Source: Stegostoma tigrinum (Eukaryota). Taken from it: 64,000 nt of DNA. The notes under the pieces were generated by a model, which worked only from the letters and a program-made list of their open reading frames with translations, searched no databases and was not told the origin of the DNA. Each line of letters starts with the position of its first letter. Position 1 is the stretch's first letter. Positions 2,893 through 50,000 of this stretch are shown here, in pieces. A program made the translations under genes and the position numbers. Location of the stretch: positions 41,031,517-41,095,516 of the forward strand of contig NC_081357.1 of assembly GCF_030684315.1 (NCBI RefSeq). Direction: 5' to 3'.

Positions 2893-3126
2893 TAATAAGA
2901 TAATAAAATGTGAGGCTGGATGAACACAGCAGGCCAAGCAGCATCTCAGGAGCACAAAAGCTGACGTTTCGGGCCTAGACCCTTCATCAGAGAGCTCTCT
3001 GATGAAGGGTCTAGGCCCGAAACGTCAGCTTTTGTGCTCCTGAGATGCTGCTTGGCCTGCTGTGTTCATCCAGCCTCACATTTTATTATCTTGGAATCTC
3101 CAGCATCTGCAGTTCCCATTATCTCT
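2893..3126. mobile_element. Fold-back Penelope-like terminal fragment with hammerhead cores on both strands
   Basis: Perfect IR 2897-2994/2995-3092; 13-bp TSD aagaggccctcta (2880-2892, 3127-3139); near-identical to terminus of GIY-YIG element at 12360. Confidence 0.88.
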
Positions 3127-3546
3127 AAGAGGCCCTCTAACCCTGTGCCGATCAACATGCCCTGACTAAACCGGAGGAAAACCTTCTGCCCTTAATCGGT
3201 CGGTATCCCTCTATTCCCTCCATATTCATGTCCCCATTCAGATGACTCTTAAATGTTTTTAATATGCCTGCTTCCACCACCTCCTCTGGTAGTGCATTCC
3301 AGGTTGCTACTGTAAAACCTTCCCTCGCACATTTCCCATAAACTTTCTTTCTCTGATCTTGAACCTGTTTCCCCTTGTAAATGAAACTTCAGCCCTGAGA
3401 AAAGCCTCTGTCTGTGGGTGTCATAATTTTGTAAACTTCTATCAGGTCTCCTCTCAGTCACCATCTTTGCAGTGAAAACAGTTCCCTAATCTTTTTAACC
3501 TTTCCTCATAGCCAATGCCCTCTAGACCTGGCAATATCCTGGTGAA

Positions 3547-3785
3547 GAGATAGTAAGAACTGCCGATGCTGGAATCTGAAATAACACAGTATGGACCTGG
3601 AGGAACAATCCTATCAACATCCCACCGAGCTTGCCCAGCCCCACCCTCCACTATTTATTTCAGAACTCCCTTCCCCATTTCTGAGGAAGGGTCCTAACCC
3701 AAAACGTCAGTTTTCCTGCTCCTCTGATGCTGCCTGGCCTGCTGTGTTCATCCAGCTCCACACTGTGTTATCTATTAATATAGAA
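3547..3785. mobile_element. Penelope-terminus-derived insert, partly inverted, degenerate hammerhead
   Basis: ctgaggaagggtcctaacccaaaacgtc core-like motif; ggtgaa TSD at 3541-3546 and 3786-3791. Confidence 0.65.
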
Positions 3786-11000: not shown

Positions 11001-14000
11001 TGTCCAGCCTTTCCACATAAGGTAATCCACTCAGTCCAGGTATTCGCCTAATAAACTGTCTCTGAATTGCTTCCATCACAATAAACCCTTCCATAGGTAT
11101 GGTGACCAGTACTGCAAACAGATGTGGTCTGTGGTATAACTGAAGCATAACTTCCATTCTCTTGCATCGATTATCCACACAATATAAGATATCGTACTAG
11201 CTTGCTTGACTACTTGCTGCACCTGCATACTAACCATCTGTGGTAGATCTCGTTCTAATATATAACCGTCAAGATAATATGTTTCTTTTTTATTCATTCT
11301 GCCAAGATGGACGATTGCTGTTTTCCACATTGTACTTCATTTGCCGGATTTTCAATGCAGGTTTGCATTAATTGTGTCTATTTGAGGGACTCTGAAGAGA
11401 CTCTCAAAATGTATGTTTTTGTTTAAAGTGCAATGACACTAATAGGCATCTTTCTAAAACACTAATGGATGCCTGCTAAGAAACTGACAAATGCATACTA
11501 ATAAAGTGAAGAAATTGGTCCGTTTGATATTTTTAGATTATTTTGAGTTATTTAAAATAAGATTACTCAAAAGGTAATGAACAATATATTCAGCTAAAAT
11601 GATTTCTTTAAGTGATAAATCAATTTAGTTGCATTACTAAATAGAGTACAATTGACAAGTATACACTGATCAGAACGGTGCCAGATGGATCTCATTGACT
11701 ATGAGATCTACGATTGGTGTTGTTAACCTGGGCCAATCAGGGAACCCTATCTGAGAGATATAAACAGGAGATTCAGAGAGTCTCTACATTATAGGGACTG
11801 GGGCACAGAATGAACACACGTACGCATGTAAATAAAGGGTGAGTTGGTGACAGGATATCTGCTTCCTTGGAATTATTTCAAATACTGCTTCATGCATGAA
11901 TAAAGCAATAACAATTCCAAAGTACAGTTCAATTGAGATGGTTTACAAACTGCTTTTTATTTTTAATGCAAAGCAGTTCGAGCAAGAAACTTGAACCATA
12001 AAGTCAATTTTTTAAAAATTAACTACTTTGACCACAGTTTGGACTCACATCTGTACTTGTGTCCAAAGAAGAAACTAAATAACCAAGGCAGAAGCCTACA
12101 CTTAAAAAATGTTCTAGCATCCTAGGCCTTATAAAACACATAGTTCTCTCATTATCATCAACCGTCAGAGATTTAACATAGAGCATTAAGGCTTGATTTT
12201 TGAGACAAAAGAAAATAATTTACAAGTAATCTGTAACATTAAAATGCTTCAAATGAGGCAGGGAGGATGAACACTTATTCACATAAGTCATCATACATAA
12301 AAACATAATAGGCATATCCCTACAATGTGGCATTCCAACCGGAACTCCATCAACAAACAGATAATGGGAACTGCAGATGCTGGAGAATCCAAGACAACAA
12401 AATGTGAGGCTGGATGAACACAGCAGGCCAAGGAGCATCTCAGGAGCACAAAAGCTGACGTTTCGGGCCTAGACCCTTCATCAGAGAGGGGGATGGGGTG
12501 AGGGTTCTGGAATAAATAGGGAGAGAGGGGGAGGCGGACCGAAGATGGAGAGAAAAGAAGATAGGTGGAGAGAGTATAGGTGGGGAGGTAAGGAGGGGAT
12601 AAGTCAGTCCAGGGAAGACGGACAGGTCAAGGAGGTGGGATGAGGTTAGTAGGTAGATGGGGGTGCGGCTTGGGGTGGGAGGAAGGGATGGGTGAGAGGA
12701 AGAACAGGTTAGGGAGGCGGAGACAGGTTGGACTGGTTTTGGGATGCAGTGGGTGGAGGGGAAGAGCTGGGCTGGTTGTGTGGTGCAGTGGGGGGAGGGG
12801 ACGAACTGGGCTGGTTTAGGTATGCAGTTGGGGAAGGGGAGATTTTGAAACTGGTGAAGTCCACATTGATACCATTAGGCTGCAGGGTTCCCAGGCGGAA
12901 TATGAGTTGCTGTTCCTGCAGCCTTCGGGTGGCATCATTGTGGCACTGCAGGAGGCCTGTGATGGACATGTCATCTAAAGAATGGGAGGGGGAGTGGAAA
13001 TGGTTTGCGACTGGGAGGTGCAGTAGTTTGTTGCGAACTGAGCGGAGGTGTTCTGCAAAGCGGTCTCCAAGCTTCCGCTTGGTTTCCCCAATGTAGAGGA
13101 GGCCACACCGGGTACAGTGGATGCAGTATACCACATTGGTAGATGTGCAGGTGAACCTCTGCTTAATGTGGAATGTCATCTTGGGGCCTGGGATAGGGAT
13201 GAGGGGGGAGGTGTGGGGGCAAGTGTAGCATTTCCTGCGGTTGCAGGGGAAGGTGCCGGGTGTGGTGGGGTTGGAGGGCAGTGTGGAGCGAACAAGGGAG
13301 TCACGGAGAGAGTGGTCTCTCCGGAAAGCAGACAGGGGTGGGGATGGAAAAATGTCTTGGGTGGTGGGGTCGGATTGTAGATGGCGGAACATCAACAAAC
13401 ACATTGGTTTGGAGCCCATCTACCATCCTCTGAGAAAAAGAACAGGAGATGACATCACCAATGCAGGAAATGACATCACCAACCCAAGGAAAGCTAAACA
13501 GGTAACTAGAAAGCGGGACCTAACACCAGCGCTTCACCGGAGGCTCACTGATGATGTTACCTAGAATGGTGACGATACGTCTGAAAACTAACCTTCCAGC
13601 TCAGCGAGCAAACTCCCATCTACAATGTAGTATCGAATACACCCTTAATAAGGGGACTAAATCACCACCTTTCACTAGTCCAATTAAAAATGTTATCAAT
13701 CTGAAAAAGTCAACTGTCTTTTGAGATGGGGTGAAACCAGTAATTTCTGTTTTTTATGTCTTCAATAAGTTACAAGTACAAATGCCTGTTGATATCATCC
13801 ACCTTGTTTTCATGTATGCTTACCTACACACGGCAACCTGTCCCACCTCTAGAAGTGACAGCGAATTTCCAATCACAGCCAATGATTCAAAGGCTAGCTA
13901 CAAGAAATAAAATCAAAACACATGAGCATGTTTAGGATATTCCTGGAGTTGGTCAAACTAATTTGGCAATTCAAAACTCCAAAATAAATCCAAGAAATTG

Positions 14001-20000: not shown

Positions 20001-23000
20001 AATGCTCAGGCAGTTTGGTGTTTCCAGTGAGTGATCACCTTGCAACTGGAACCCTCTGAGAATCTGCTCCAACTTCTGGGCAACTATACAACTGACATCC
20101 TGACTCACCATTGACAACCCGACCTAAAATCCAGCCTTTTCCAGCCAACCCAAAATGACAATCCTGACCTACCCTAAACCCTCACCCACTTACCTTGCAC
20201 ATTTAAAAGCCTCTCCTTATCCTGCCCAAGTGTCTTATGCCGTTTAAACTCCAGAATACAGCAGCTACTACAGTAAAAAGGGGAGAGGGGCCCAGGATTG
20301 GCCTCTGGCAGTGATCTTCTGCTGTGTTAGAAAGCTCCCTGAACGAGTATGCTGTGCACTTCTCCAGAGGCCCAAATCAGAAGTTTGGGCCTGAAAAATG
20401 GAGATATACAGAAGTGGAGGAGAAAAGAAGCAGAATAGCAATCAGACTATGACTATCAGTTGCTGGAACATTTGGTTCATTTGAACACAATAGTGCGTAG
20501 GACATGCTAAAAGGGCTGGGTTTCGATTTCATGTCTTAACATGCTTTAAAAGCGAGAGAAAAAAAAGCAAGAAATCTGGGGCATGTTAAACCTTTTCAAA
20601 ATGTGCCATTTTACTGATAAAGGATTTAAAAATGAATCTGCCTTCGGTCTTTAAAATAAAATTCTTCTCCCTTTATTAGTCAGTTCCTTAATTCTTGTCC
20701 TTTACTTACCTCTTCTGGACTTCCAGACTTCTCATTTCGCCAAGCATCGAGCTGCTGTTCCAGCTGCTTACGTAGTTGTGCTGGGTCAGGAACAACTCTC
20801 TGGAAAACAAATTGTGTCACTTAACTAGAAAATGGTAGAACTCAAAGGCATTGCTCAAACATACTGAGCAATGATTCATTCACTACCTGCACCGGATTGC
20901 AACCATGAATTCGCCTTGGTGGTAAAGTGCATTTGGACTGAACAAGAATGTGTACGCAAAGGAGTATGCAGGGTTCTCTTCTATTTCCAGAGTCCATTAA
21001 CTAGTTTGCAATGTACTGCTGTTTTGTAAATGGGAATATACTTATCTCAGTGACAACCAAATACAGATCATGTGTCTCACCATCATTTCCCCACATCTTT
21101 TTGATCCCTCTGCGTGCTTACCATTTCCCAATGGGTTCAGAAAAAGCAGCTGCAGTGAGGTTGATGCCTCATCCAATACTCAAAACCACCTGAATTTCCC
21201 TCATGCCAAGGCCTTCAATTTCCCAAAGGCTCAGTTTGTTTAAGAACTAATGGTTGAAAACTACCACTTCGAATTTTTCTCAACATCTTGTAAATCAATA
21301 ATGTACTATGATCCTTTTCTTCCTAAAGTAATTTATTTAGCAGTATCACATTAAAGTAGCAGCTTGTGCTTTATGCTTATTTGCCATATAATCCAAAATG
21401 ACCATCGAGTGACCATCATTCGAAAATCTTCTTTTTCAGCTTTATGTTTATGGAATGGAAAGGTGCTAAACTTTTATAAAAGTAAAAGCAAAATTCTGTG
21501 TATGCTGGAAATGTGAAATGAAAACAAAGTGCTGGAGAAACTCAGCAGGTCTGGTAGTCTCTGTGAAGAGGGAAACAGAGTTAAGCTTAAAGGTCAATGA
21601 AAGAAGTATAAAATAATACACAAATAAGAATATTTGCTTTCCCTGCCACTTTTGCAAAAGCACAAAAATCATTTTCTAGGCCCCTTCAGATATGAATGCA
21701 TTACTGCACTTGATATGCTAATTCGGTTTCTCTCTCCACAGATGCTGGTAAACCTGCTGAGTTTCTCCAACACTTTCTGCTTTTGTCTGTAAGCTTCCAT
21801 ACTTTTTCAAAGTCCTCAGTTAGCAGATCATGCTTGGTGTGAATGGTAGACTCTCTGCTCCTTTCAGGAATCTCTTCATTTTCTGATTCTGAGTCATCTC
21901 TTGCAGCATCCACCTCTTTAGGTTTGGGAAGCTGAAACTCTCCTTCAAGATTGCTGTCAGATCCTGCAAACATACCAGATAGGTTTCAACTGACTTAAGA
22001 GTTTAAAATAAATCTTTAAAGCCTTGATTTTCACAGTTCTTGATAGGCAAAAATAATTTGCAGCCAGTGAAGTGGTTTTCAAGAAGAGTTAACAATATAA
22101 AAAAAACGCAATAGCCATTTTGCACACAAACTCAAATATAACAAAAAGGCAACACATCAATTAATATGGAACACAGGAACAGGAGTAGGCACTGCAGCCC
22201 CCTAAGCCTGTTTTGCCAATGACACCAAGGCTGATCTATGGCCTAGGTCGATATACCTGCCTTCGGTCCATATGCCTTAATGTCTTAGCTTAACAAAAAT
22301 GTATCTATCTCGGGTTCAAAACTAACAACTGATTCAGCATCTACTGCAATTTGTGGAAGAGTTCCAAATATCTACCATCCTTTGTGTCAAATTGCTTCTT
22401 AACATCTCTCCTGAACTACGTCCCTGATTCTCAGACCATGCACCCTAGTTCTAGAAACTCCAACCATGGAATTAGTTTATCTTTATCTTCCCTGTTTTTT
22501 CCTTTTAATGTCTTGGAGACTTTGATCAGATTACGCCTTAACTTATTAAATTCTACAGAAGACTGGAAGGAGAGCCTAGTGGGTAAGACAGTAGAACAAC
22601 AATGGCAGGAGTTTCTGGATGTAATTGAGGACACAGTACAGAGGTTCATCCCACAGAAAAGAAAGATTACCCGGGGTGTGATTAGACAGCCATGGCTGAC
22701 AAAGGAAGTCAGGAAATATATCAAAGAAAAAGAGACAGCCTATAAAGTGGCTAAGAGCACTGGGAAATCAGAAGATTGGGAAGGCTACAAAAACAAACAG
22801 AGGATAACAAAGAGAGAAATAAGGAAGGAGAGGATCAAATATGAAGGTAGGCTAGCTAGTAATATTAGAAATGATAGTAAAAGTTTCTTTCAATATGTAA
22901 GAAACAAACGAGAGGCAAAAGGAAACATTGGGCCGCTCCAAATTGATGATGGAAGGCTAGCGATGGGAGATAAGGAAATAGCTTAAGAACTTAATAGGTA

Positions 23001-26000: not shown

Positions 26001-29000
26001 CCCTTTCTATACTATAATTGTGTGTCTAACTACCTGGCGCATTTGTAGATGAGAACTTTTTCTCTGGCTTCAGCTCTTGTACATCCACGCTTTGCAATTC
26101 CTCTTCCTGATCAGTTTCCATTTCAACAGATTCAGTCTCTTCTTCGATCTCCTTTTCCTGTTGAGATCCACCTGAACTTTGTTGCTCTGCTGTGGCTACA
26201 TCTAAAATGAGCAATTTGTAAAATTAGAATAAGGTGATACATTGACTCCATGTACATCTTTCTCCTGAAATCATTTTGTCATTGAGACAAAGATTCTTTT
26301 TCACAGGTTTCTGAATTTGAATAATTCTGAACTCACCAAATGTTTGAGCGTCAAAGGATTCACCGCCTTCTTTGATATGTTCATAAACATCTGCCTCCGT
26401 CACTTTTTGTTCTGACTGGGCCATGTCCTGTTGGGCCGCAATACTGGCTTCCACCATCTTCAGTCGCTTGCTCACATGTTCATTGTGATCACCCAATGTT
26501 CTTTCGGCATCTGTATGACCGGGTTTCCTTTTGTAACTCTTGAGAAAGAACACAGTTTTAGTTTTTCAAAACATTAGAAAGATAACTTGTGTTTCTTACA
26601 TTGTAAAACATTGTGCAACAAAATTTATCTGGATGCTACTTAATCCAATAGACATGAGGACATATTGGGGAGGGGTTACTTTAGACACGTATCCACATCT
26701 CCCGAAGCTTGATTGCCACCCAAAGCACAAGGACCACATTTATTCTTTGTATGTAGATTAACAAACAGGAGAAGATTCTGTTTTAAACTAAAGCAGTGTG
26801 GAAGATGATGTTGCGTATTTAAAACAATGACTTATTGGAATTCATTGTGGGATTATCTACAATGGTACCTTCAAGTAGTGGGGAAGGATGCCAAACATCC
26901 CAGATTTGTTTGTTTGTTTGTTTAGGGGTGGTTTGCCAACTGACAGATTTTTGATTTTTTTTTCAATCAGAGCCAATTGTGTTGAGTTCAGGAGTGTTCA
27001 GCCTACTAACAACATTTTGATTGATTCCTGGGTGATTGGCTAGTGTTATGTCAAGACGGTACAGCAGAAACATCCAGCTTGAAAGATCTCTCCCTTCTGT
27101 AAGTGGAGAAAGCTACTGTCTCTCTGCAGACTCCCTTCTTCAAAGGCAAAGGCAAAGGGGAAAAACCACCTTCAGGGAAACTGACATTGAATGACAGATT
27201 CAGAAATTGAGTGTCCACAACCTCTCATCCCCAAAGAGTAGAAAGGAATTGGAAGGGACTGAAGGCAATCAATTCATCTCTGCCTATAATCCAGAATGGT
27301 GCCAGAACTGTGCTTCACTAACTTTTTTGTTCCTTCCTGCCCATAATGTGTGCATCTTGCCTGGTCTCTGTGAACCGTTTGCCTATGTACGCGGATGTCT
27401 TATAGACTCCTTCCTGAGCTCAACAGAGTGCTGTGTAATTCATTAGTGCAGTCCCAGAGTCCACTATTGCATATGGAAAAATTCAACAGATTTAATTTCC
27501 TGCAGTAAAACAACTTGCATTGTATCCTGTTAGACCTTTTCCTGTATCATTCAAACAAAAATAATGAGAATGTTTCTTCCCACAAGTTACTGCAAGCTAG
27601 TAGCAGCAAAGGAAAGGCACTAGGGCATCTGGAGCTTGATGAACAGTATCTAGAATGTATCTTCTGAACCGATGACATGAGAAAGTCTGAGAAGTAAATA
27701 CAGAAATGACTGGGGATGAGGGGAAAATTCAATGCTCACTCAGGTACTAAAAAACAAGGAGAGAAAAAATATGTTTGGGCTGACAGACAAGAAACAAACA
27801 AGGAATTTTTTTTTTAAAAAATCATTTTTGAACTCAACAATTTGCTAGAGAAGGGATAAGACTCCACATTTCACCTAGCACTCACTTTCTGGACAGAGGG
27901 TGGGTGACTGGCAGTGACTAACAATTATCAAGCCATTAACGGCAATTGCACTATTTAAACTTATCCCAGAGCCAAAGTCTTAATGACCCATTAAAGTGCA
28001 GAAGTACAGTAACTTCATGAAACTGAGGGAGAAGTCAAAATCAAGATGACATTTTCAGAAGCTAACAGAGTGATACAAATCGTCTGGAAACTTGTGACAA
28101 TCAATTGCTGGCATCTCTCTTCCACGCCATGGGTTCCTGGCTCATTTGGACATTAAATGGCAGTGTCATTTGGATGACATTATATTTTTGTAAATTTTCA
28201 GTCAATGCCTCTGGTATTTCATTGAAATAGGTCCTGCTATTACCCCAAAATAGTTTGGCAAAATGTAGAACATCAAAAAAGATTAAGCACAGTGGTGGTA
28301 AGGTTTTACTGCACAGTGAAAGTGCAGATTGAAAACAAAAAACATTGGAAATCACAGGTCAGGCAGCATCTGTGGTGAGAGAACAAGCTAACGTTCTGAG
28401 TCGAGATGATTCTTCATCAGAGCTGATGAAGAGCCATCTAGACTTGAAACATTAGCCTGCTCTCTCTCCATGGATGCTGCCTGACCTGTTGTGATTTCCA
28501 GCATGTTTTGTTTTTCAGTACAGATACCAATAGTATTTTGCTCCTACATTGTGAAAATGAAGACTTGTTTTTGAACAAACCTAAAAAAAATTTATGGTTA
28601 ACATGCAAACTTCATAGCTGATTAATAAGTACTAAATTGCATTTATTGTTGGAACTGCAGGTCTGGCAGCACCTGTGAAGAAAAAGAAATCAGAGTTAAT
28701 GTTTCGGGTCCGGTGACCCTTCCTCAGCATCCACAGTTTTTATTTTGCATTTATAGTTGCTTGGTTAGAGACAACAGTCAATCAAAATAAGTGCTCAAAG
28801 CTCCTGCTGTAATTGAAAACATACAGAAGTAATGCTACAAAAATACACAACTCCATAACATAAAAAAGTAATCATAAAAGTACGACATCTACATGTTTGT
28901 CAAAACAAAATGTTGCCCACCAGTGGAACTGTGGTTTTACCTGCGTTTTGTCCAGGGATTGTTTTTGAGCTGCAACCCGCGCCATCAGTTTGGACTCGTG

Positions 29001-32000: not shown

Positions 32001-35000
32001 CACACAGAACCTGCAATTTTGCAAATTGATAAATATTACAAAAGTAGCATTTAAAATTGGCATAAGCAGGAGAGAAAAACCATGGATTAAACAATAGAAA
32101 AACAGACCAGATACAAAATTTATGATTCTTCCAAGAAGTTTAAGCCTTAAAACTGGTTTTCTTCAATACGAAGGCTACAGTTAGCATCAAGTGGAGCAGC
32201 AAGTAGAGTTCCGAGATCTTTTCAATCGATGAGGAATGAGTGAGAAGATATAGGAGTTTTTATGATGTAGGTTCACTATCAAGAGTTCATATGGAGCTAA
32301 GTGCCTTTTAACTGGAAAACACAAGTTCTTGATCACTGTTCAGGTGATCTCCGTTGAAAAATAGCATGCAGCTAAACACTGACATTGATTGGCAAGAGTA
32401 GAATTATTCATTGCACCCCAGCAAGGAGTCAATGTCTTGAGAAAAGAGAAAGGCATGCTGCTTTGCATGACCTGGGACTGAATTTATTCACTAAGCTACC
32501 TGAAGGCAAGATAAAAGGGTGTCACAATCTATTATTGTAAAATCTATTAATCTAGAAATTCTTTGCACAGATTACAGCCAATTTACCTCCTTCTTCCTGA
32601 TCCTCATCACTTTTTTCTCCATCTTCGCTTTCCAAATTGAGGTCTTCAGGCAAGTCCAAGGCCTCTGTCTCTGGCTGTTTATCTTGATTGCCTTGGTAAG
32701 GATCTACTTCATTTTCATCATATTCACGCTAATATAAAGAATAGATTAGTAAACTCCTGTCAGACTAGCATGTCAAATTTGTCATGTAACTAATAAAATC
32801 ACTGGTGCAGGCACAGGTTTATTCTCCATGCACTACGTCAATGTGACAATATCCAAGTGAGATAATGTTACATTATAGTGACTTGTATCTTCCATTTTAT
32901 GAAGAATGTTTCATGCGAACATATTGCACTACTAACGAGATCCATATTGTTATCTAAATGATTAATACTTGTAGAAAGTAAAAATTTTATTTCTGTGATG
33001 TCTAATGATTTACTTTTTGTCTTTGGAAAAAGAATTTCACCCTGCATTTGGACTATAGGTCGGCCCTGATTTAAGGATGTTCAACATACCAATGTTCCTA
33101 CTTACAAATGTGATCCTATATTAACATAATGGATCTGGCATGTTCACTTGTACTTACAAACAGCTATTTTACATTGTATTCTGGTTTGCATACCAAATCG
33201 ACTTAAACGTACTTGGGAGCTGAACCCATTCATAACCTGGGAATGCCTGTAGTTTCACTTCACACAACAATGCAAACTTTAAACGTAAATAAGGTGTTTG
33301 TATTCAGGCTTTGTCTGTTCCTTGCCCAATAACTCAGAATTTCCCACAATCTGAAGGACTTAGGAAGTGAACTTGGGGCTTTGCCAGTCACTGGTCATAA
33401 ACCAAACATTTTGGTCCTTGTGCTCATATCCATAGTGGAGACGTTTTGGCAAAATAGACATTAATACCTCATCCAACTGCTCATGAATTTTCTCTCTGCC
33501 TTCTTCCCCTCTCTCCTCCTCCTTCTCTTGCTCCTCCTGTCTCTTTTTGTCATTCTCGCTTTTGTTTGCTACATCCATGTTGTCATCTTTAGCAACGAGT
33601 TCAGACTTCTCCTGTGGATAGAAAACCAGTTGAAGCATATGCTTACAGATGGAATTGATAACTAACCCAAGTGAAGAGCTCCTCCAAAAAAAGCAGAGGT
33701 GGGCAGTAGGGGAATATGAACAGCCAGTGTTTGAAGCTATGCATCTTTTAAATTATCCAATTCATGATACGTGTGTAAAATGGTAAAGAAGTGACTGTTA
33801 ATTGATGACATCACAAGACAAAGAGACCAGTGTCATCATTCCACATGCAAAGGAAACATTTGGAAGTGTAGCCAATTCTGTTTTCTGCTAAAATCTTTCC
33901 TACTAGAATTGATTATTCACTAATATAGTATACAGATAGGGTCAGAGTTTGTACTTATAACTTGTAGTCACTTCATAAGTCAACATTTTCAGGAACAGCA
34001 AGACATTCCCTGTCGTTTCTTCGGTTCAGAAAAAGGAATAAAACAAAGGTGAATCAAGGAGTTAAGAAGAAGCAAGATAATTATCACCAATTATCTTTTT
34101 CACCCCAAATCCTGTTACGATAAAAGGAAAATGAAACAAAGAGAAAAGTCTATATGTTAAGTATTCATTGAGCATTTGTCTTCAGTAAGAATGGAAACAA
34201 AGATGACTAAACTATTCACTGTTGCAATCTCAACAGCTTTCACAATGAACAGATGTATTTAGAACTGAAGTTACTTAATTAAAAGTGAATTTCATAGATT
34301 TAAAACGTTCAGCGTCCTACCCCATCCATTCCAGGGCCAGTATCTTCAGCCTCATCATGAACACTATCTTCATCATCATCATCCCCCCATAATCTTTCAT
34401 CTAGTTTATCAGCCTCTGCATTTTCGAGATCACCCATCTGTTTATCCAGTTCTTCCTCATCGCTATCCGATTCCTCATCATTGTCATCCTTTCCTGTAGA
34501 GACAATTCAGCCAATTAAATACAAGACAATAAACATAAGACCATAAGAAATAGGAACAGGAGTGGGTTGTTCTGCCCTTCGAGCCTGCTCTGCCATTCAA
34601 TAGGACAATGGTTGATCCAAAATTCCTCAGCTTCACTGACCCTGGATTCCCGTTCTGATCAAGAACCTACCTTAGCCTTAAATACACATAAGGACTCTGC
34701 CCCCGCAGCTCTCTGTTTCGGAGACTCTCAACTTTCCAAAGAAATATTTCCTCGTCAGAGTCTTAAATTGCCCTTAATTCTGAGACTATGCCCTCTGGTT
34801 CTAGACTCTTCCATGAGGGGGAACATCCCATCAGCAGTTACCCAATCAAGTCCCTTAAGAATCCTATATGTTTCAAAGAGATCACCTATCATTTTTCTAA
34901 ACTCCAGGGAGTAAAATCGCAACCTACTTAAACTTCCTCATTAGACAATCCCTCCATACCGGGGATCATCCTAGTGAACCTTTCACTGAACTGCCTCCAA

Positions 35001-38000
35001 TGGAATTTCCTTCCTTTAATAAGGGGACCAAAATTGCTCACAGTACTCTAGATGTGGTCTCATCAACATCTTGTATAGTTGCAGTAAGACTTCTCCACTC
35101 TGATACTCCAATCCCCTTGAAATATGTGTCAACATTCCATTAGCCTTACTGATTATCTGCTGCACCTGAGTGCTGGCTTTCTGTGTTTCACGTACAAGTA
35201 CCCCTAAATCCCTCTAACTGGTTGGTTGTCATTTGAGAACAAGATAGAACATGGTGGTGGCTACATTAGTCTGTCTCCTGAATCATTGTGATTTAATAAA
35301 ATGGAGACCATTTGGCCCATTGTGTCTGTAGTGGTTCTCTGAACATTTTAACTCACGCCGGTCTCCTATCTTTTCCCCATAATCCTGCACATTATTTAAA
35401 CAGGATTACTCATCCAATCTTTCTTGAATGCCTCAGTTGGATCTGCCTCCACCACATTTCCACGCTGTGTGTTCCATAAACTAATTCTTTACTATTAGTT
35501 AGACCATTCAAAAGAAAAGCAGCTTGTATTGTGATGAATTTAACTTCCTTCTACCATCAAACAGGAACCTGTCCCCCATGTGGAACATTTAGCAATATTT
35601 TTTGGTCTAAATCAAATTTTCTGAAAGATTATGGATGATATTCAAACTTTGTTTTGCACAACAAACACTGTCACAAATCTTGAGATTAGAGCCACATCCG
35701 AGTTCAGATTTCACCTCAGTTGGCCATCAACAGCAGCCACCCACAACACCATAATTCCATCATGAACTTGCTTGTGTTTACAATTAATACATTATCTGCA
35801 GTGAACAGATAGAGTCAACGTACAATTGGAATAGTTAAGATGGCATAAATTATAAAATCCAACAGGTTTACAGAAGTCAGTTTATCAGTTTCATTGCTCG
35901 AATTAATTTATTCACAGCACTGTCAAACCTCATGCAAGAAAGATGACAATCTCAAACTAGCAAGTTCTCAGGATGCCAAAATCAAACTCCAGCCAGCTTG
36001 GTTCCGAACATTTAAAAAAAGTTTGAGTTTCTTTATTGCCTTGTTCCATGTTAGCTTAATAGCAGCAAGTGAAATGGCTCTGTGGCATATGAGGCCACTT
36101 TTACTGCTGCTGCAATTGCAACATTATATCACACATCAAATGGAATTAGTGCTATTTAAAATTAGTAATGCGCACTTTCATGAACGTTTCTATTACATTT
36201 AAAACTGAAATGTTAACGGAAAATCACTGTGCTGAAGTTAATTCTTGACAGTTGCTACCAGACCTGCTCAGAATTTCCACATTTTGTTCTCATGTTGGAT
36301 TTCTAGCATCGGCAGTGTGTTTTTTAAAACTGATTAAACAGTGCGTACTGTGTGTCACTCAGCAACTTACCTGGTTCTTTGGTATCTCCATCGTGAAGTT
36401 TTCCTTGGAAGTCCTCAGTCATTTCTATGGCATTCTCTTCCTCTTTAATATCAGCCATATTGTCTGTGTCTTCTTGCTTTTTTTGGTCTTTGCAGAAGGT
36501 ATCTTCCACCTAAAGAAAGGACAAACACATGCACGTTGCTGAGGAAAGTGAACAGAAGGCATCAAAAAGGAAGACAATAGGACACACAGTGCCACAACTT
36601 TGCTATCACAGATCTCCAATTCTTGAACATTTTCCTCCAACCTTTTCTCCCCATAAAGCACTTAACTCATACCCAACTGTGTCCCAAAAATAATTGAATT
36701 TAAAATAACCCTGATCTCTACAATTAATTTCCATGAAGTTATTAAGCATGTTGAACTGCTTAGAGAGTCCCCCAAAAGGCATCCACTCTTTAGCAGTGGT
36801 CCAGGGAAGGTGAATATTGTCCAGTTTTCTTGAACTGACAGAAGTGCAGCCAAACTCAACACCCACCCTCTGCCCAGGACTTTCCAGCAGTACAACTGGT
36901 TGGTTTTCATGTCCTTTGCTCTTTACTTATTTCTGTAATAGAAACGTTCATGAAAGTGCACGTTACTAATTTTAAATAGCGATCTCTGCACTAATTCCAT
37001 TTGATGTGTGATATAATGTTGCAATTGCAACAGCAGTAAAAGTGGCCTCATATGCCACAGAGCCATTTCACTCGAAATTCGAACTTTTTAAAAAATATTC
37101 GGAACGAAGCTGGCTGGGAGTTGGATTTTGGCATCCTGAGAACTTGCTAGTTTGAGATTGTCATCTTTCTTGCATGAGGTTTGATAGTGCTGTGAATAAA
37201 TAGTTGATGTAGTCAATATAAATGAAGAGTATTTCAGGGATCAGAAAGTGAACCTAGAATTTTCTTATCTCACTGAATTATACATTGCTTATTTCAACTG
37301 CATCATGGGGATCTCTCGCCATGAGAACGAGCACACAGTGTAGACGTTTCATGTTGCGTTTGTCGCATGCTATCAATTGTTGTGTAGCACATGTAACTGC
37401 ACATGTGCAAAAGCTCAACATGGATTTTAAGTAAAAGGCAGTGGTAATTTTTCCCTTTTATAAGACATTGATTTAAAAAGCAGGGTCCTCTGGAAGTAGC
37501 AGAAGCAACTAGTGCAAAAGGTTAGAAAGGAGGACTTCCAGTACTACCCAGTCACAGAAATGGTTATTTAATTCTTAAATCAGATTCTGAACTACCATTC
37601 CCAAGCCCTACAGCGCTTCAGTTTACAATTAGCATAACCAGCAACAAATGTGTCCAAATAAATTTCTTCTCAAGCACTGATCATTTTTCTACAATTGTAA
37701 CCTCACTTACATAGAGGGCCTATTTCTATGAAACCTTAATGTTTTATGTTAAGATGTTGAAAAAAAAAACACATACCTGGTCTTCATTTTCAATCCTGTC
37801 ACTGACATCCTTCACACCTTCACCTTCTCCAATTCCTCCACTCTCATTATCATGGAATTGGGTTGAACCTTCGCCCATCGCATCCTCCATTAACTCTTCG
37901 GGGAGGCAGAATCCCTGCCAAGTAATACCACACTTCATCATATCCTCACCCGAGATTTTTAAAATATTCCTTAAGAGTAAAGTTTAGTCTTGGTCCCTTT

Positions 38001-41000: not shown

Positions 41001-44000
41001 TCAGAAATCTTGCCTTGTTCTTTTTCATTCTCCTCTTGCTGCCGCTTTACCACAGCCTGTACAGCGCAAAGTACAGTATTAATTGCTGGCTCCACTTGCA
41101 GATTGAAGTCTACTAGCAAACTCACACTGGAATCTAGTGATTACAGAACACAAAAACAGCAACAGATAATTTAAAATGCATTGCTTGGTCAATTTTCTTC
41201 TTGTAAAATAGAACAAAAAAAGGTGTTTCACATTTCATTCTCACCATCAAATGTCAAATTCAGTAGATTTTTCTCCCATGATGCAAATTCAGCTGTAGCA
41301 CAACTGACTTCGTCCTTAATATACTCGAGGCTCTTGAACAGTGCTGGGCAGTAAGATGCATTCCCAGAAGCAGCAGCAGCAGCAAACATGGTCTGTATAT
41401 CTTGCAGCTGAACCATGGCTCTATTCAAACAACTAATCCCCAGTGAACAGGTCTCAAAACATGTCCTGGCAAAATAACATCACATTTATGTTTATAGTCA
41501 GAAAAATAAGCAACTGAAACAGAAATGTGGCATCCATTTTCTTATACTTGTACTAAACTTGAGAAGTGGCAAGTAACAGACATTCCATAAAAATGCCAGG
41601 GAATGTCTATCTCCAGCAAGAGAAATTGTAAGCATCTTTCATTGATGCTCAAAGGCAACATTACCGTCAATTTCTAAAACATCATAATTCTGGGGGTCAC
41701 TATTAACCAGAAACTGAACAGGACCAGCCATGTTGACACCGTGAGGCTGTTGACTTGCTTACCAAGCTGGCTTGCTCTCATTCAGACGTTTGGTCACCAT
41801 GCTAGGTGACATCATCAATGGAGCCTCCGGAAACGATGTTGTTCTATTCTGCTTGGAACTTATACCAAATGGTCCATTATGGGGAGTAGTGTCATTCCTG
41901 GTTTTGATCTGTATGGGTTAGTTTATAAGGTCCAATTCTGTATGTTTGTTGATTGCACTATGGGTTGCCTTGTTCCAGTTAAATTGATAGCCTTCATTGT
42001 CTGAACGTACCACTAGTAAGGAGAGTTCGTGGTGCAGTTTTGCTGCTATCTGATGTTCATGTATTCCGATGGCTGGTTTCTTTCTTATCTGTCCAATATC
42101 ATGGTTGTGGCAGTCATTGCATGGTATTTTGTAAACCACATTGGTTCTGCATGTTGTGGGAATGTGGTCTTTAATCCTTGAGAGTGTTGTCCTGGAGTGG
42201 CTATGGGATTGTGTGCCACCGTAATTCCTAGTGGTCTTAGTTTTGTAAGTCTTGGTAGCCATAGTAACCCAAACCAAACCTAGACATGCACGGGAATTCC
42301 TGGAGGCATGGTTCTCCACCCATAATGCAACAAACATAGAATTAGACCCCATATACAAACCCAAGCAGATCAAAACCGGGATTGACACTACTCATCATAA
42401 CAGATTGGACAGTATAAATTCCAAGTGGAGTAGAATAACATCGCTTCATCGGAGACTCCACTCATGGTGTCACCTAACATGGTGACAAAATGTCTGAACA
42501 AAAACAAGCCAGCTCAGTGAGCAAGTCAACACCCACATCCACAACCTGAGCTACAGAGCTTTGGCAAAAGTTTAAATGTAAACAGTGTGGCTACCAGAGC
42601 TGGTTAGATGCCAGGAATTCAGTCATGACTAACATGTCATAACCTCTCAAAATCTTGTCCGCCATCTGCAAGATAAGAGTCAGGAGAGCGATGGAATACT
42701 TTCCACTTGTGTAGGTGAGTGCATCTCCATTAGTTTAACACCAACCAGTTCGATCAGCACCCCATCTACCCCCTTCATCTTTCACTCCTTCCAGTGCCAT
42801 TTACAAGAGATGCAGTGCAGCGATTCACTATGGCCTATAAGAGATGTAGGGAATTGGGAACACACTCACTTGCATCTGCACCTCCATCCATCCACCATCT
42901 CTTGCTCAAAATCCTGATATTTTAACTGCAGCAGGAATGTTTGTTGAAGCATAAATATTGGTCAGAAAACTGGGGATAACTCCCCCGATATTCTTTAAAA
43001 TACAAGCAAGGGATCTTGAACATCTAGCCACCCACGTGGGCAGATTTACTGATTAACATAGTACAGAAAATGCCCTTTGGCCCACTGAGTCTGCACCTAC
43101 ATAACTACCACTAAAAGTGCACTAATCTCAATTTCCTGCACATGCCCCACACCACTGAATGATATGATGTTTGAAGTACAACCTTTTAAAATAAGAAATG
43201 TGGGTGAATAAAGTTTCTGGCCTCCAGCACCTTCCCAAACAGTGGATACCAGATTCCCATGACCTGCTGAGTGAACGACGTTTTTTGCTCAAATCCACTC
43301 TGAATCTCTGGCCCTTTAGCCTAAAGCTATGCCCTCTTGTGACTGACCCCTCAACCAAGGGGAACAGCTGCTCTCTATTTCACCTTGTCCATTCCCCTCA
43401 AACTTATACACCTCAATCATGATCCCCCTCACATCCAGTCTTCTCTGCTCTAAAGAGAACAATCCAAGCCTATGTAGTCTCTCCTTACAACTCTATTTCT
43501 CCATCCCAGACTTCCTCTGTATCCCCTCTGGTGTGATCACAGCCTTCAAGTAGTGAGGTAACCAGAACTGTACACAGTACTCCAGCTGTGGCCTGACCAA
43601 CTCTGTGTACAACTTCAACAGTACCTCCTTGCTCTTATACTCTATGCCAGAACAGATGAAAGCAATGTCCCAAATGCCTTCTTAAAAGTCTTATTCATGT
43701 GCTCTGCTGACTTCAGGGACCTGTGAATAATTACTCCAAGATCCCTCTATTCCTCTAAGTTACTTAGTGTCTTGCCATTCATTGAATACTCCCGCATCCT
43801 GTTTCTCTTCTGAGGTGCAGGTCAGGGCCTTGGTTCAGTAGGTCATCCAAAATAAACCTCTGACACCACAGCATTCCTTCAGTACTGCACTGGAGTGTCA
43901 GACTTAATATTTTGTGTTTGGGTTTCCAGAATGCAATTTGAATGCAGAGCATTCCAACTCACAGCCAAGTTACATTGTCATTAGGCAAGTGTACCATCTG

Positions 44001-47000
44001 CTGAGACACAACTGATTTTATATAGAATACCTTACTTACTTACTGTGTTACCAACATGATTGTTTTTAAATTACGGAAAGATTTACCATGAATATAGCAA
44101 AGTTTTGCTGGTATGCTGACTCATCTCATCCACTTGTGCCTTTACCGCTTTAACTTCCTTCAACATGTTTTCCACTTGCTGAGTCACCTGTTGCCAGGTG
44201 GGATCTCCTTGCTGCATTTTACAAGCACTGGGCAAGTAATCTTCAACCAAGGGTGTGGGGAACCTCAAATGGGGCCGGACAAAATCCTCAGGTAATGATG
44301 ATGCTGCTGCCATTTGTGCATTTCCTGGGTCCATTTGATCAGTGGGTTTGTCCTGCAGTTCATCATATGTTTCAAATGGTTTCTCTCTTGGACAACACTG
44401 CAAAAACCACAAAAGCTGCTCCAAGGCTATCACAAACTTCATAGACAGGGTGCGCAGTTGGTCCATCCAAAGTCTGACATCAGCCTGTGGTGGAAGTGCC
44501 ACAGCATGGTCCTTGAAATCTGCCAGACTTTTCTGAATCTTGTGTAGACTTTTAATCAGATATCTAATAAACAAGAGAAAGGGATTTAAATCACAGCTCG
44601 AATTCGAAAAAGGACAGACAAATAATGGGCAAAGTAATGACAATGCAATTTTTAAGTAAATAAGTTGCTAAACATTGAAGTTATTATGTAAGGCTACTTA
44701 AAAAAAACACACACACACAAACAATTGGAAAATTATAGTGTTACTGAACAAAAATGAAGCCATTAAAACATTTTAAATGCAGAGTCACACAACATACCTT
44801 AAGCTGACCCACTGCTCAGTTAGCCCAGTTAGGCACTGTCTTTGTTTGATCAAAAGTTTCAGCAGATGAGCTGTAAATCCTTGGCAACGTTCAACATTGC
44901 CCAGGCTAAGTTCCTACAAAAGCCAAGCAAACATCATGAAAACAGAAGACTAGAATATGACAAGACAGCAATCTCTTGCCAATGATTTCAAAACTAGTGG
45001 GAAAAGAAGATCTGAAGCAATAAAACTAAATTGAGCTAGCGTTATTGTTCTTGAGAATGATTAATTTTGTATTTTTCTGAGCCCTTCATTTCTTATTCAG
45101 TTCATTAAGATTTAATCCAATTATTAATGAATATATCCCACAACACTAGTGTCCGTTAATTGAGGTGGGCAATTTATTCAAGTTGTCAACTCAGGTTCAA
45201 CAAGGTTTTCTTTCAAGAAAATTCTGTTCATGGCGAATAATTAAATGATTAGATCCATTATTATTCAGTATTTGATCCACCACCTTCCTAAACCTGACTG
45301 CCATTACTTTAAAACATGGATCACATTGCATACATGCTGATCTTTTCTCTTCTCCAAAGCAGACAGATTCAGTATTTGCCGTGCAGTGATTTAAATCTTA
45401 CAAATAATCTCTGATCTTGCTATAAATCCTTTCCATTGTTTCTAATTGTTATAGCCACAACAACTGGAGTTTAGCATCGCAGCCTGAACATTTTGAAAAG
45501 AAGTTTTTAAAAATAAAAAGTTATTTTCAAGGATGTGGATGATAATGCTGAGGCAGGATATATTGCCTATTCTTTGTTGCCTTAAAAATTAATCAACTTA
45601 TAAATTAGGAGCAGGTGCAGGTGATGGACAGTGGGCCAAATGCTAGGAAATGAGATTGGAGTAGTTAGGTGGCTGTTTTTGACCAGTGGGAGACCAAGTA
45701 GAAGTGGGAGGTTTCCCTCCTTAAACCACTTTTTGTTCTAAAGAAAAGCAACGTGCATTTTTTGTTTTTCTAGCTACAAAGCTCAACATTGCAAGTGGGC
45801 AACTCGGGATTTGAACTCTCCACTTCTGAGTTGCTAGTACAGTTGCAGAAACAGTTACCACTACATCCTTGCTTTTAAGGATCTATTTATTCACATAACT
45901 TATGAGCCCTAAAGCGCAATAATGCTTTTGTAATTTGATAAATTGCACCAGTAACTTTCTCCACTTTTTGGCAATATCTCCAATTTCACACTGCACTGAT
46001 GTGAATACACCTATCCAGATGCTAATGTGACAATCTAATCACTAAGTGGTTCTATACCAATTCCTGACCAACTAAAGACAGATGGAAATTACTGTAGTCA
46101 AAGACAACTAGGTTGAAATTCTGCCTGTTAATGTTCAGAGTCACTGTGACCATCATTACCTTGGCAGGAGTACGCATTGCCACCTGGAGGGCAGCACGAC
46201 GCGCAACAGACTGATAGAAAAACTTCTGACAGTCTTCCCATGCAGCAGAAATTTCAGCAAGCAACCTGCAACATTAACAAATGTCAATACTACATATTTA
46301 AAACCACAGTATTACTCAGAACACAGACCTTTTTAACAAAATAGTATTCTGTAGTATCAAAGAGCTTCTTTTAAACTCAATTCTGGCATTTTAAAATAAT
46401 TTTCCAGCACTAGTTATGCCAATATTACCTGCCAATATCTATTTACAATTACAATGCTTCCTATTCACTCCTTCAGGAAGAAAAATAATTTTGTTATGAG
46501 AAACACATCGGAGTAAAGTATCAAATTCTTAGTTTTGTAAATTTTCATCCTCAATTGCAAAATAACGGCTGTTAAAACTAAACATTATCAGATACAAGAA
46601 TGTAAAGTGGGCCAAACCTGAGTGGAGGCCCTTGAATGTGTGTTACTAGCCTACTTCAGAGTCTGAAATGGCGGTAAGTTCAGAGGACCCCCACAGACAT
46701 CTTGTCTAGAATGTAAATGTTGAGATGGCAGGAAGGGGGAGCAGTTTCCCCTCCCAGCCAGCTTGCTCAATTACTTTAGATCTCATGAACTGTAGATGCT
46801 GGAGTCAGAGATAACACTGCATGGAGCTGAAGGAAAACAGCAGGTCAGGCAGCATCAGAGCAGCAGGAAAGTTGATATTTCAGGTTGGGACCCTTCTTCA
46901 GAAACTATTTTTTATGTTATGAATTGTCAAGTCAACTTTCCTCCTCCTCTGATGCTGCCTGGCCTGCTGTGGTCCTCCAGCTCCACACGGTTACCTCTTG

Positions 47001-50000
47001 CTCAATGACTTGTCCTTCTCACCACCTCCAGGGGAGGAGGGGGGTGGGGGATGGTAGAGGGAGAGATTTACTAGAAGGATGTGGACACTTTGGAGAGGGT
47101 ACAGAAAGAGGCCTACCAGGATGTTAATAAAAACCAAAAGGGCTGCGGATGCTATAAATCAGGAACAAAAACAGAAATTGATGGAAAAGCTCAGCAGGTC
47201 CGGCAGCATCCGAGAGAGAAAACACAGTTAACATTTCGGATCCGGTGGCACTTCCTCAGGACTGTTCTGAGGAAGGATCACCGGATCTGAAACATAAAAT
47301 CTGATTTTCTCTTCACAGATGCTGCCAGACCTGCTGAGCTTTTCCAGCAATTTCTGCTTTTCTTCTTTTTTTTCTAAAACCAGGATGCTTTTTTTTTAAA
47401 ACCAGCCGGGTAGGGGGAATTTTAATTATGAGAAAAGGTTGGATAGACTGGGTTTGTTTTCAATGAAACGCAGGAGGTTGCGGAGCAACCCAAAAGAAGC
47501 TTAAAAGATTATGAATGACATGGATAGAGGGGAAAGTATGAGGCTTTTTCCCTCACAGTGGGATGATCAATTACTAGGGGACACGGGTTCAACGAGCAGT
47601 GGTGGGGGTGGGTGGTTAAAAGAAATGTACAAGGCAGGTTTTTGACACAAAAGGCAAGAGTGTGCCTGGAACATACTGCCAGAGGTAGTGATGCAAACAG
47701 ACACAGTAACAGTATTTAGAAAGCACTTGGACGAAAACATGAGTAGGAAGGGAAGAGAGGGATACGGATCTAAGTGAAGACTGTTTTAATATGGAATGAC
47801 AAAATGTGTTGGTGTGGGCTTGGAGGGCCAAAAGGCCTGTTCCTGTGCTGCACTGTTCTTTGTTCTCATATAGTTTCATTTTCCAATTAAGTAAAACTCT
47901 CAGTCACAAAACTAGATTTCCCTGACAATATTATCTACAATTTAATCTAAAAGCAATGTTTCACACCTTTCTGCAATTGAGAACCTTGGCATTTCCTGTA
48001 GTCAAAGTGAGAGACCTACTCCCAGAGCTACATTAAAATAAGTCCTTCTTCAGCCACAGAAACATAAGAGCTTCACTCGAGGCCAGTTTTGCCGATTTTT
48101 CCACTTGTCCCACCCACTGACTGCATTGAAGTTTCCACTTATTCACTTCATACAGCAGACATTAAGAATTAGTTGAGCACTAGTGAAGGACAAGTTTACA
48201 TCTTAGCAACCCAAGGCCCTGCATACTGCTGCTTGTCGCCTCCTTTACCACAAACAATTTTTGTATAGTTAACAAAATTAAAGATTATGTTCTCATATTA
48301 AATTTCACCAGGAACTGGCAGCTCACATGTTATCCAGCTCATCACCACTGCTAATCAGATTTACAGCTGTCTTCACATCAAGTGGATGCAGGCAAAATAC
48401 ATCCGGAGGGTCATCTGTTCGAGACCAAGCTAGTCCTTTACGGTAAGACAGACCTGAAAAGGAGGAGAGGAAGTACAATACACTGTATTTTAGAATGCTG
48501 TGCACCCAGTTGACTGCAGTTTCTCAGTCTGGAGTTCTTCACACTCCATCTCGCGATTCATCTGAGCTCTCTTCCCCACAAAGCCACTTCAGAACATCCC
48601 ATCATAACCATTCAAATCCTGCCATGGCAGATGGTGGAATTTGAATTCAATAAAATATCTGGAATTAAGAATCTAACGATAACCACAAATCCATTGTTGA
48701 CTGTTGGAAAAACTCATCTGATTCACTAATGCCCTTTAGGGAAAGAAACGGCCATCCTTACCTGGTCTGGCCGACATGTGACTCCAGACCCACAGCAAAT
48801 GTGGTTGACTCTAACTGTCCTCTGGGCAGTTAGGGATGGGCAAAAAGTGCTGCCTGGCTAGTGAACCCTCATCCCGTTAATGAAGAAACAATTAAAAAAA
48901 AGCAATAATTTGGAGCAAGCAGTCAGTGAAGCAAAGTCTCAATGGCAATAAAGCCACTTGATATAGTCCATGCACAACCTTTTTGACTAGCTCTTTTCTA
49001 AACTGGGGCCTGCTTTCAACTAATTAGGTCTTAGCTTTTTGACAATCAAGGCACCTAGAACTACAAGATGGAAATATGAATTGAATTCAAAAGGTAAAGT
49101 CATACAGATGCCACTTGGCATCAAATTCAGTTTCATTTGTAACCCCAGACATGAACTACTCCATGTATTTAATACACAGCCTTAATTAAAATGCATAGGC
49201 TCCTGCTAATGGTACTGGGCAAGACTTCAACCACTGAATAATAGTACACATTATAGGATATAAAACTTCTGTTTAGAGTTTGCACATTCTAACTATTTAT
49301 ATCAATCCTGTCATTTATTTAAGGCCATAGTTTTCGTGGAATAAATCCTGATGTTATAGTTTATCAGGGTTAAGGGAAAGTCCTCAAACGCTTGTAGATG
49401 TCTAGCTCCAGTCCAGAGGAAAATAACAAAATGACAATTAAACACCAAAGCCCTTGGGAGAATCTGCACAAAACTATTCTAGAAATCAATACAGTGCTTG
49501 AAGCTTACCAATTTCAGTGAGATGTTTGAAGAGATCTGCCAAGGCCCTTTGCTTCTGCATCAGAATATGTTTGATTTCCGATCGCTGCTTGTCCTTATCA
49601 GCCATTTGGTCAACAGTAAGACTTTGGAGATCTCGTACAGTAGTGATGACATTACCTACCAGAATCAAGAGACAGCTCATAATTCTTTGGGTTGACTGGG
49701 AAGGTTTATCAGTGGTTAAAATAACAGGCACCTTAAGATTTCCCTAATTTCATTGTTGACAAATACCCGTTGTTAAGAACTACTCATACTCAATGTTGAA
49801 TATTTTGTAGTTGGGATGATCATCAAATTTACCTATGCATACTGTTAATGTAGCCAACAATATAAAGTATATGCAAACTATTCAACATGCTGTCAACAAA
49901 CATGAATAACTAGGAACTCCAGAAGCTACATTTGAGAAAATAAAACTCTGAACACTTTGCACATAAAGATAGCAAAGCGAAATGTAGGGTTAGTGGGCTG

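Follow-up and report, generated by a model that had tools for sequence, protein, structure and literature searches.

Endonuclease-bearing Penelope-like elements (EN+ PLEs) are described, in passages of three earlier studies, as forming head-to-head insertions with inverted pseudo-long terminal repeats (pLTRs), palindromes at the junctions, and an optional tail of 30 to 40 bp (PMC8557442, PMC3846280, PMC2377424). We analyzed a stretch of 64,000 nucleotides (nt) from Stegostoma tigrinum (assembly GCF_030684315.1, contig NC_081357.1, positions 41,031,517 to 41,095,516; here called the window) in which three short inserts, fold-backs A, B, and C, each pair two inverted copies of a Penelope terminus across a hinge just 5′ of the CUGANGA box of a hammerhead ribozyme motif. 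A preliminary description of this DNA had stated that inverted termini are known in Penelope elements, and the same three publications bear this out. For the head-to-head PLEs of rotifers, self-priming on an antisense template was favored and the question left open (passages in PMC3846280), and the insertion route, the RNA strand that is copied, and the role of the hammerhead in PLEs are posed as open questions in parts of PMC3846280, PMC8557442, and PMC11167929. In vitro, the Poseidon protein of Anolis carolinensis cuts both strands and extends them, initiating at two internal positions that flank the tail, with uncleaved RNA as its template (PMC11167929, in part).

The S. tigrinum insertions share with the inverted-pLTR insertions of EN+ PLEs an inverted, 5′-truncated copy at the 5′ end, a tail at one end only, junction palindromes, target site duplications (TSDs) of variable length, and a hammerhead in the terminal repeat; they differ in that the arms shrink to the first 100 to 130 nt, the 5′ ends gather at one edge, and the rule that one arm of a pair bears the tail while the other lacks it is strict (25 of 25 pairs). 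TATA and initiator-like motifs, similar to those seen here, have been noted for a rotifer pLTR. Our evidence speaks more for a template that is sense and capped than for the self-priming on antisense RNA put forward for rotifers. The anole element is alike in its two adjacent internal reverse transcriptase (RT) start sites bounding the tail, cleavage and extension of both strands, a predicted dimer, an uncleaved RNA template, and a ribozyme at the junction of pLTR and open reading frame (ORF); its start sites lie within its ORF, whereas those considered here lie in the 5′ untranslated region, and the parent here carries a Neptune-type linker (passages in PMC11167929). The same passages describe neither short fold-backs nor an RNA 5′-end map for anole Poseidon. 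The minimal hammerhead ribozymes (min-HHRs) of metazoan PLEs have the same core, and both "dual min-HHRs close to each other in opposite strands" and dispersed single motifs have been noted; a hinge at the 5′ edge of the motif does not appear in the sections of PMC4209133 concerned, and here the motif in a fold-back transcript would pair with its complement and could not fold.

L1 twin priming and the cap-derived 5′ G of full-length L1 and SVA insertions resemble what is proposed here: in the former, cDNA is primed from each of the two target strands, and in the latter, a G that has no template shows where copying ran off at the cap. The second primer of L1 falls at varying internal positions, and the segment copied is a different one, whereas here two fixed sites ~36 nt apart are used and the same segment is copied, giving a mirror image. 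[quoted passage not shown] A literature search, with Dfam, Repbase, subscription journals, and supplements outside its reach, found no account of a hinge or a pile-up of ends at the ribozyme's 5′ edge; inverted ends and tails are already published.

Fold-backs in the window and their parent element

Positions within the element are numbered from the first C of CUGANGA, taken as 0. The fold-backs and the parent copy in the window comprise the following features.

2880..2892, no strand: left TSD of fold-back A (right copy at 3127-3139)
2897..2994, minus strand: fold-back A, tail-less arm, covering the parent terminus between -4 and its inner 3′ end (~+92)
2991..2998, no strand: fold-back A hinge, 8 nt between the CUGAUGA cores; varies among copies
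2995..3126, plus strand: fold-back A, tailed arm (-4 to ~+128), with the tail at 3093-3126
2999..3026, plus strand: fold-back A minimal hammerhead core (CUGAUGA, stem II, GAAAC, GUC; motif definition from passages in PMC4209133), predicted cut after 3026; mirrored on the minus strand from 2990
28331..28420, minus strand: fold-back B, tail-less arm (TSD 28316-28328 / 28551-28563)
28423..28548, plus strand: fold-back B, tailed arm (hinge 28421-28422)
47127..47259, minus strand: fold-back C, tailed arm (TSD 47115-47123 / 47379-47387)
47267..47372, plus strand: fold-back C, tail-less arm (hinge 47260-47266)
12359..13389, minus strand: 5′-truncated parent of family A, with a GIY-YIG coding end, a TATA-like box at 12518-12511, a hammerhead from 12484, a tail, and a 12-bp TSD

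In fold-back A (2893-3126), two arms of 98 nt each (2897-2994 and 2995-3092) are 100% complementary, with the axis 4 nt upstream of CUGAUGA and a hinge of 8 nt separating the two cores. The hinge of fold-back B (28331-28550) is 2 nt long, with its axis 1 nt upstream of the box and arms that are 82% complementary, and that of fold-back C (47124-47378) is 7 nt long, with its axis 3.5 nt upstream. These measurements agree with the earlier statement that the three inserts fold back 1 to 4 nt upstream of CUGANGA, and their content is terminal non-coding sequence, as had been described. The TSDs of A and C, 13 bp (2880-2892 / 3127-3139) and 9 bp (exact), also stand as given there; that of B, previously put at ~15 degenerate bp, is 13 bp with two mismatches. 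In all three inserts a tail of 32 to 36 nt is present on one arm only. RNA folding gave a z-score of -30.6 for A, which, together with thousands of exact joints and no control matches, indicates that the fold is not due to chance. Exact joint patterns numbered 6,771 of the A type and 1,570 of the C type across the 3.2-Gb genome, with 0 control matches. The pattern for family B had 31 matches, many of them family-A variants, so no count was taken from it, its scarcity being attributable to the age of this family (~80% identity). Sequence searches with A, B, and C returned 407, 3,643, and 7,395 first-look candidates, of which 40 each were scored, and full-length look-alikes occurred on many contigs.

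The element at 12359-13389, whose terminus shares 97% identity with the arms of A, encodes a GIY-YIG domain (Pfam, E 2e-4, below the curated cutoff), and another family-A locus (L283) encodes RVT_1 (E 2.4e-6) and GIY-YIG (E 0.009) in a single frame of 795 amino acids, both likewise below the curated Pfam cutoffs. The linker between RT and endonuclease has the form CX4CXXC in both P0001 and the ORF in the window, and by this motif the family-A parent would point to the Neptune type; the linker motif of the Neptune clade is given as CX2-5CXXC, and it is present in Nematis too (passages in PMC8557442). A tblastn search with P0001 recovered RT/GIY-YIG coding sequence upstream of the terminus at 4 of the 25 loci of family B and at 10 of the 20 of family C, with 34 to 61% identity, four C loci without an anchor being scored as misses. 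In near-full-length copies the ribozyme spans 0 to ~+33, the inner end lies at ~+92, the tail end at ~+128, and the ATG at ~+166; the terminal block thus runs on into the ORF, and it therefore stands at both the front and the back of a full transcript. It is repeated upstream as a pLTR with a hammerhead at a tandem locus (L293), and two further copies (L295 and L306) start at the ribozyme and run into the ORF. Judged by predicted coding sequence and layout (a single ORF with RT and then GIY-YIG, a pLTR, a tail, and an inverted copy), the family-A parent is an EN+ PLE, and families B and C are likewise assigned EN+ PLE parents from their sequence. Among the ordinary insertions that RT/GIY-YIG PLEs make head to head, the fold-backs form the shortest class; they are by-products of a known kind of element, and their earlier reading as Penelope-terminus fold-backs with a minimal hammerhead, produced by the RT/GIY-YIG of the element, was upheld.

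All families carry the CUGANGA/GAAA motif, and stems I and II differ in sequence among them yet pair, although stem I of family A is only 2 bp long. The minimal hammerhead of metazoan PLEs is defined by a CUGANGA/GAAA core, a short stem I, and a palindromic 2-bp stem III (passages in PMC4209133); the fold-back motif, which also has the NUH triplet, fits this definition, and self-cleavage is a prediction from it. An Rfam scan gave no match to a hammerhead model, and single ribozyme copies folded with ViennaRNA took no hammerhead shape and had z-scores near 0, as expected for monomers because such motifs are thought to act as dimers. A fold-back transcript is predicted to form a hairpin of -205 kcal/mol in which both cores are paired, so the motifs that these units carry are unlikely to be active ribozymes. 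An assignment to retrozymes was rejected, the two ribozyme copies being inverted and mutually complementary and not tandem direct repeats.

Ends, tails, and joints of the arms

Family-A arms were mapped in a 950-kb sample made up of 10-kb stretches at even spacing and in 368 kb of flanks of individual loci. An arm was kept if its identity was 90% or more, if it extended to +80, and if no fewer than 60 nt of the stretch lay beyond its 5′ end; the fine distribution of ends is based on the resulting 112 arms and on 100 matches listed from each of two pattern searches. The 5′ ends of 45 arms fall in -6 to +5 and only 4 in -40 to -7 (P = 4e-22), with 35 in +6 to +110 and 28 upstream of -40, and the 950-kb sample alone has 38 and 4 ends, respectively, in the first two intervals (n = 93). 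The earlier observation that 5′ ends gather just before CUGANGA holds for these arms. Arms that pass the edge by more than 10 nt make up 31 of the 112. Head-to-head pairing accounts for 50 arms in 25 pairs, with arm lengths from ~50 nt to more than 2 kb. In 10 pairs both 5′ ends fall no more than 10 nt from the box, in 7 only one does, and in 8 neither does. Of the hinge position that had been described as fixed, what stands is that ends pile up there and are not placed at random, but a hinge at the box is preferred, not fixed. Among the 62 unpaired arms, 26 start within 10 nt of the box, and of 30 loci with the front part of the ORF, two near-full-length copies start at -1, one is tandem, and the rest stop further downstream. 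Since unpaired arms and near-full-length copies share the edge, it is a property of cDNA ends generally, not of fold-backs. The 950-kb sample also holds 27 family-C arms, of which 11 end in -6 to +5; they include two pairs, too small a sample for a test of pairing, one of them without clear tailed and tail-less arms.

The 3′ ends of the 112 family-A arms are bimodal, with 56 at the inner end, 54 at the tail, and 2 between. Every one of the 25 pairs combines one tailed and one tail-less arm (P = 6e-8 versus free choice). In eight pairs the 5′ ends are more than 15 nt apart, and in five of these the tail-less arm is the longer, which excludes a fold-back cDNA that copies itself there. Most pairs agree in the subfamily of both arms, but at least one does not: the arms of L230 come from two subfamilies. 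Exact TSDs flank 28 of 30 young copies and measure 9 to 17 bp, mostly 13 to 16 bp.

For a comparison of hinges, 54 family-A loci were reduced to 49 by removing two with an unclear tail and three that were duplicate or gapped; these 49 were chosen by similarity or pattern and are not a random sample. They contain 37 different hinges, some with deletions that reach into the box or with fillers whose sequence was copied from adjacent parts of the arms, and the most recurrent hinge is found in up to 4 copies. Variants outside CpG sites that are mirrored on both arms number 47, versus 6.9 expected when arms are shuffled among loci, a value that none of 2,000 permutations reached, while one-arm-only variants common to several loci are few and lie mostly at subfamily sites. 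Copies with the same hinge diverge by 4.1% (16 pairs) and other copies by 4.6%; the arms of one locus diverge by 2.5%, compared to 4.3 to 5.0% between loci. The same hinge position recurs in subfamilies with different upstream letters and in families B and C. Hinge diversity, mirrored variants, and a hinge position common to several families together favor the formation of a new joint at each insertion. The commonest C hinge has either A or T at its center while the orientation of the tail is unchanged, which is what annealing of two identical cDNA ends across 3 nt would give if repair of the central mismatch can go either way.

Upstream of the edge, a TATA-like word begins 29 to 32 nt before -4 in four families whose spacers are dissimilar (TATTTAT in A and older A, CATAAAT in B, and TATAAA in C). 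The word CATAAAT is exact in 9 of 25 family-B contexts, and the copy at 3652 in the window has a shorter spacer after its TATA-like box. Position -4 lies in a pyrimidine-A initiator-like or a TCT-like context; TATA-like, initiator, and TCT motifs are understood here in their general definitions. The parent base at -5 is C, yet G is in excess there: 3,388 genome matches carry G (A at -6 excluded), 1,386 carry A, and 1,139 carry T (C at -6 excluded). By eye, among 100 of 21,653 matches listed, G precedes 15 of 19 ends at -4, compared to 2 of 11 at -5 or -6 (P = 0.002), a count that leaves out 70 listed matches from other subfamilies or with shorter ends or parent variants. Inspection of 30 loci with G gave 5 parent variants, 4 cases explained by the mirror arm, and 21 junctions, in some of which the G is common to the partner sequence. 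In L1 and SVA insertions an untemplated 5′ G has been attributed to copying of the cap (passages in PMC3287187).

The ribozyme cut itself was considered as the origin of the hinge and ruled out: the predicted cut follows +27, ~32 nt downstream of the hinge. Among 100 of 2,795 matches listed, 26 junctions (by eye) start exactly at +28, next to 12, 11, and 8 at +25 to +27 and 4, 6, and 14 at +29 to +31; 6 of the 26 are explicable by microhomology with the other arm, and 3 of the 112 mapped arms end in +27 to +30. A minor class of ribozyme-cut templates is plausible, weakly supported as it is by these counts.

Competing explanations and a proposed mechanism

We consider it likely that the fold-backs arise when each of the two nicked strands primes a cDNA, both cDNAs extend to the cap at the 5′ end of the RNA and run off there, and their ends are then joined. 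That they are instead MITEs or terminal inverted repeat (TIR) DNA transposons merely resembling Penelope ends would suit their short, non-coding, inverted-repeat form, but this is refuted by identity to the parent and by variable TSD length: the arms share 97% identity with an RT/GIY-YIG element's terminus, the ends are made unequal by the tail, and exact TSDs range from 9 to 17 bp (28 of 30), so that we give it virtually no credence. The preliminary description had offered two readings of its own, neither of which was supported. One was a non-autonomous class of ~230-bp fold-backs copied whole in trans by the Penelope protein, which would account for the fixed outer ends, the thousands of copies with TSDs, and the few hinges that recur (up to 4 of 49), and which has a parallel in PLE derivatives such as MRC1 (passages in PMC8557442). 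We hold it to be highly improbable, given that 49 copies hold 37 hinges, that variants on one arm are mirrored on the other, that same-hinge copies are hardly closer to one another than other copies (4.1% versus 4.6%), and that one-arm-only variants are almost never common to loci outside subfamily sites; the anatomy is also the same at every arm length up to 1.9 kb, and the unit lacks the upstream TATA-like box, though an internal promoter is conceivable, and its RNA would be a hairpin of -205 kcal/mol. The other was a snap-back at the ribozyme, in which a single cDNA, or antisense RNA as in the rotifer proposal for head-to-head palindromes (passages in PMC3846280), folds and copies itself. 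Some hinges are perfect palindromes, and the arms of a locus are indeed most alike (2.5% apart versus 4.3 to 5.0% between loci), as the suggested comparison of left and right arms was meant to reveal, but the tail rule contradicts the snap-back that was to follow from this likeness. A self-copy cannot gain a tail, nor can it be 5′-shorter while being the sole bearer of the tail, yet of 8 unequal pairs, 5 have the longer arm without a tail; moreover, the second arm always ends at an alternative 3′ end that unpaired copies use too, fillers or offsets occur in most hinges, and the arms of L230 belong to two subfamilies. Snap-back is thus already contradicted for unequal pairs and is very unlikely overall.

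A further alternative concerns the edge, which might be a polymerase stop or an RNA-processing boundary: RT might stall where the ribozyme is folded, where protein is bound, or on the upstream C-rich tract, or the site might be a splice acceptor. In every family the 5′ strand of stem I lies at the edge, families B and C have a pyrimidine tract, with AG at -4/-3, and in the Drosophila virilis Penelope element the 3′ end of an intron lies at the 5′ end of helix I (passages in PMC4209133). Family A and the older subfamily, however, have no AG there, joints show no constant upstream exon, 31 of 112 arms pass the edge by more than 10 nt, and RT moving 3′ to 5′ would presumably have unwound the ribozyme before reaching its 5′ edge; a stall would also leave the TATA-like spacing and the extra G unexplained. 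We therefore judge this alternative unlikely, and the boundary is better explained by an RNA 5′ end that coincides with the first stem of the ribozyme than by an effect of the ribozyme.

Several points weigh against run-off of two cDNAs at a capped 5′ end. The excess of G is moderate after correction, with 9 of the 30 inspected G matches being a parent variant or due to the mirror arm; G is common before other ends too (26 of 88), and in family C the signal is weak (by eye in 50 joints, AGTT is preceded by G in ~5, by A in 4, and by T in 1). Ends are scattered across -6 to +5, not set at one base, and some reach -6/-7, while a minority of arms begin at the predicted cut (26 of the 100 matches listed), so the ribozyme probably shapes some ends. 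Gene conversion between arms could also produce mirrored variants, and palindrome tips mutate after insertion, which could inflate the diversity of hinges. The RNA start and the cap are predictions from DNA sequence. Finally, D. virilis Penelope has an internal, TATA-less promoter (passages in PMC2377424) and a ribozyme behind an intron, ~120 nt from the start (passages in PMC4209133), an arrangement of promoter and intron that differs from ours and suggests that the layout is not universal.

The proposed two-cDNA mechanism begins from the order seen in the parent, namely a TATA-like box, the hinge position, the hammerhead, the inner end (+92), the tail end (+128), and the ATG (~+166), with the block recurring at the 3′ end. 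A capped RNA would start at -4/-5, with the ribozyme transcribed first. Both target strands would be nicked ~14 nt apart, as suggested by TSDs of mostly 13 to 16 bp and by in vitro work on a related element, and one strand would be primed at +128 and the other at +92, a step whose pattern is visible in the paired arms. Priming on the front copy of the block would yield cDNAs of only ~96 and ~132 nt, ending at the cap or short of it and often with an added base, while priming on the 3′ copy would yield long, unequal arms with scattered ends. The cDNA ends would then be joined by microhomology, small deletions, or fillers, giving a variable hinge. The product would lack the upstream promoter, and the hairpin of any transcript would bury both ribozyme cores, making it a dead end; some templates may be supplied by short, promoter-bearing truncated copies. 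More tentatively, and with somewhat less than even confidence, we suggest that PLE integration is two-ended by design, a dimeric complex priming both nicked strands at two fixed, offset sites on capped sense RNA, with the hammerhead forming, in these families, the first 33 nt of the transcript and so placed as to cut off its own cap.

Other features of the window and wider meaning

Further Penelope-related arms in the window are listed below.

3547..3773, no strand: unequal head-to-head pair of the older A-type subfamily, with a TATA-like box at 3652-3659 on the right arm
21482..21790, no strand: two C-type arms, each ending within 2 nt of the predicted ribozyme cut, with no CUGANGA in either
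28640..28727, minus strand: unpaired C-type arm beginning at the CUGAGGA box
46788..46990, no strand: unequal pair, the tailed arm reaching to near -4 and the other arm starting from near +24, with ~25 nt of filler between

The loci at 3547, 21482, and 46788 had been taken for partial versions of the fold-backs, but none is hinged at the box. The pair at 3547-3773 is a counterexample to a fixed hinge, since its right arm includes ~70 nt from upstream of CUGANGA while its left arm ends ~65 nt downstream; the arms at 21482-21790 lack the box and are separated by 135 nt of unrelated DNA, and those of the pair at 46788-46990 have their 5′ ends near -4 and near +24. Two weak Rfam matches to microRNAs at 46836-46970 (one of them to mir-1791, E 8e-4) were far below gathering scores and were rejected as a hairpin artifact.

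A second Penelope-like family, with a different hammerhead that has a longer stem II, forms an unequal head-to-head pair at 41742-42537, one long arm of which carries decayed GIY-YIG-like coding sequence. Another terminus of this second family (13390-13625, hammerhead at 13548) adjoins the family-A parent at 12359-13389, which was probably inserted within it. Four young family-A copies (L019, L029, L233, and L026) have older Penelope-like termini as their insertion sites, in each case at the hammerhead region, so a target preference is suggested. Inverted arms of ~290 bp at 35906-37201, 96 to 99% complementary in three blocks, are not a Penelope terminus and enclose ~740 bp of unique sequence that seems to contain host exons. 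Minus-strand exons of a large host gene lie at 31578-32162, 33360-33752, 44083-44667, and 62724-63101, and the elements sit in its introns; the peptides suggest that this gene may be midasin (MDN1), and one search of the PDB with a host-gene exon gave no match. Decayed coding fragments of long interspersed nuclear elements occur at 22333-24622 and 29989-30420 and are presumably of the CR1/L2 type, judging by their peptides.

The fold-back stubs yield predictions at the level of single bases, with an RNA start at -4/-5, priming of opposite strands at +92 and +128, a nick stagger of ~14 nt, and a smaller group of ends that fall at the cut, and if these hold, the genome records where the RNA of the element begins. 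An origin from Penelope fold-backs accounts for thousands of perfect hairpins that are open to misfiling as MITEs or microRNA precursors, and such fold-backs could yield hairpin small RNAs or false microRNA calls. If two-ended integration on capped sense RNA is true, then tens of thousands of stubs would show where the RNA starts and where each strand is primed in vivo and, in fewer cases, where the ribozyme cuts; the question of sense versus antisense templates would be settled, and the hammerhead would gain a role in decapping.

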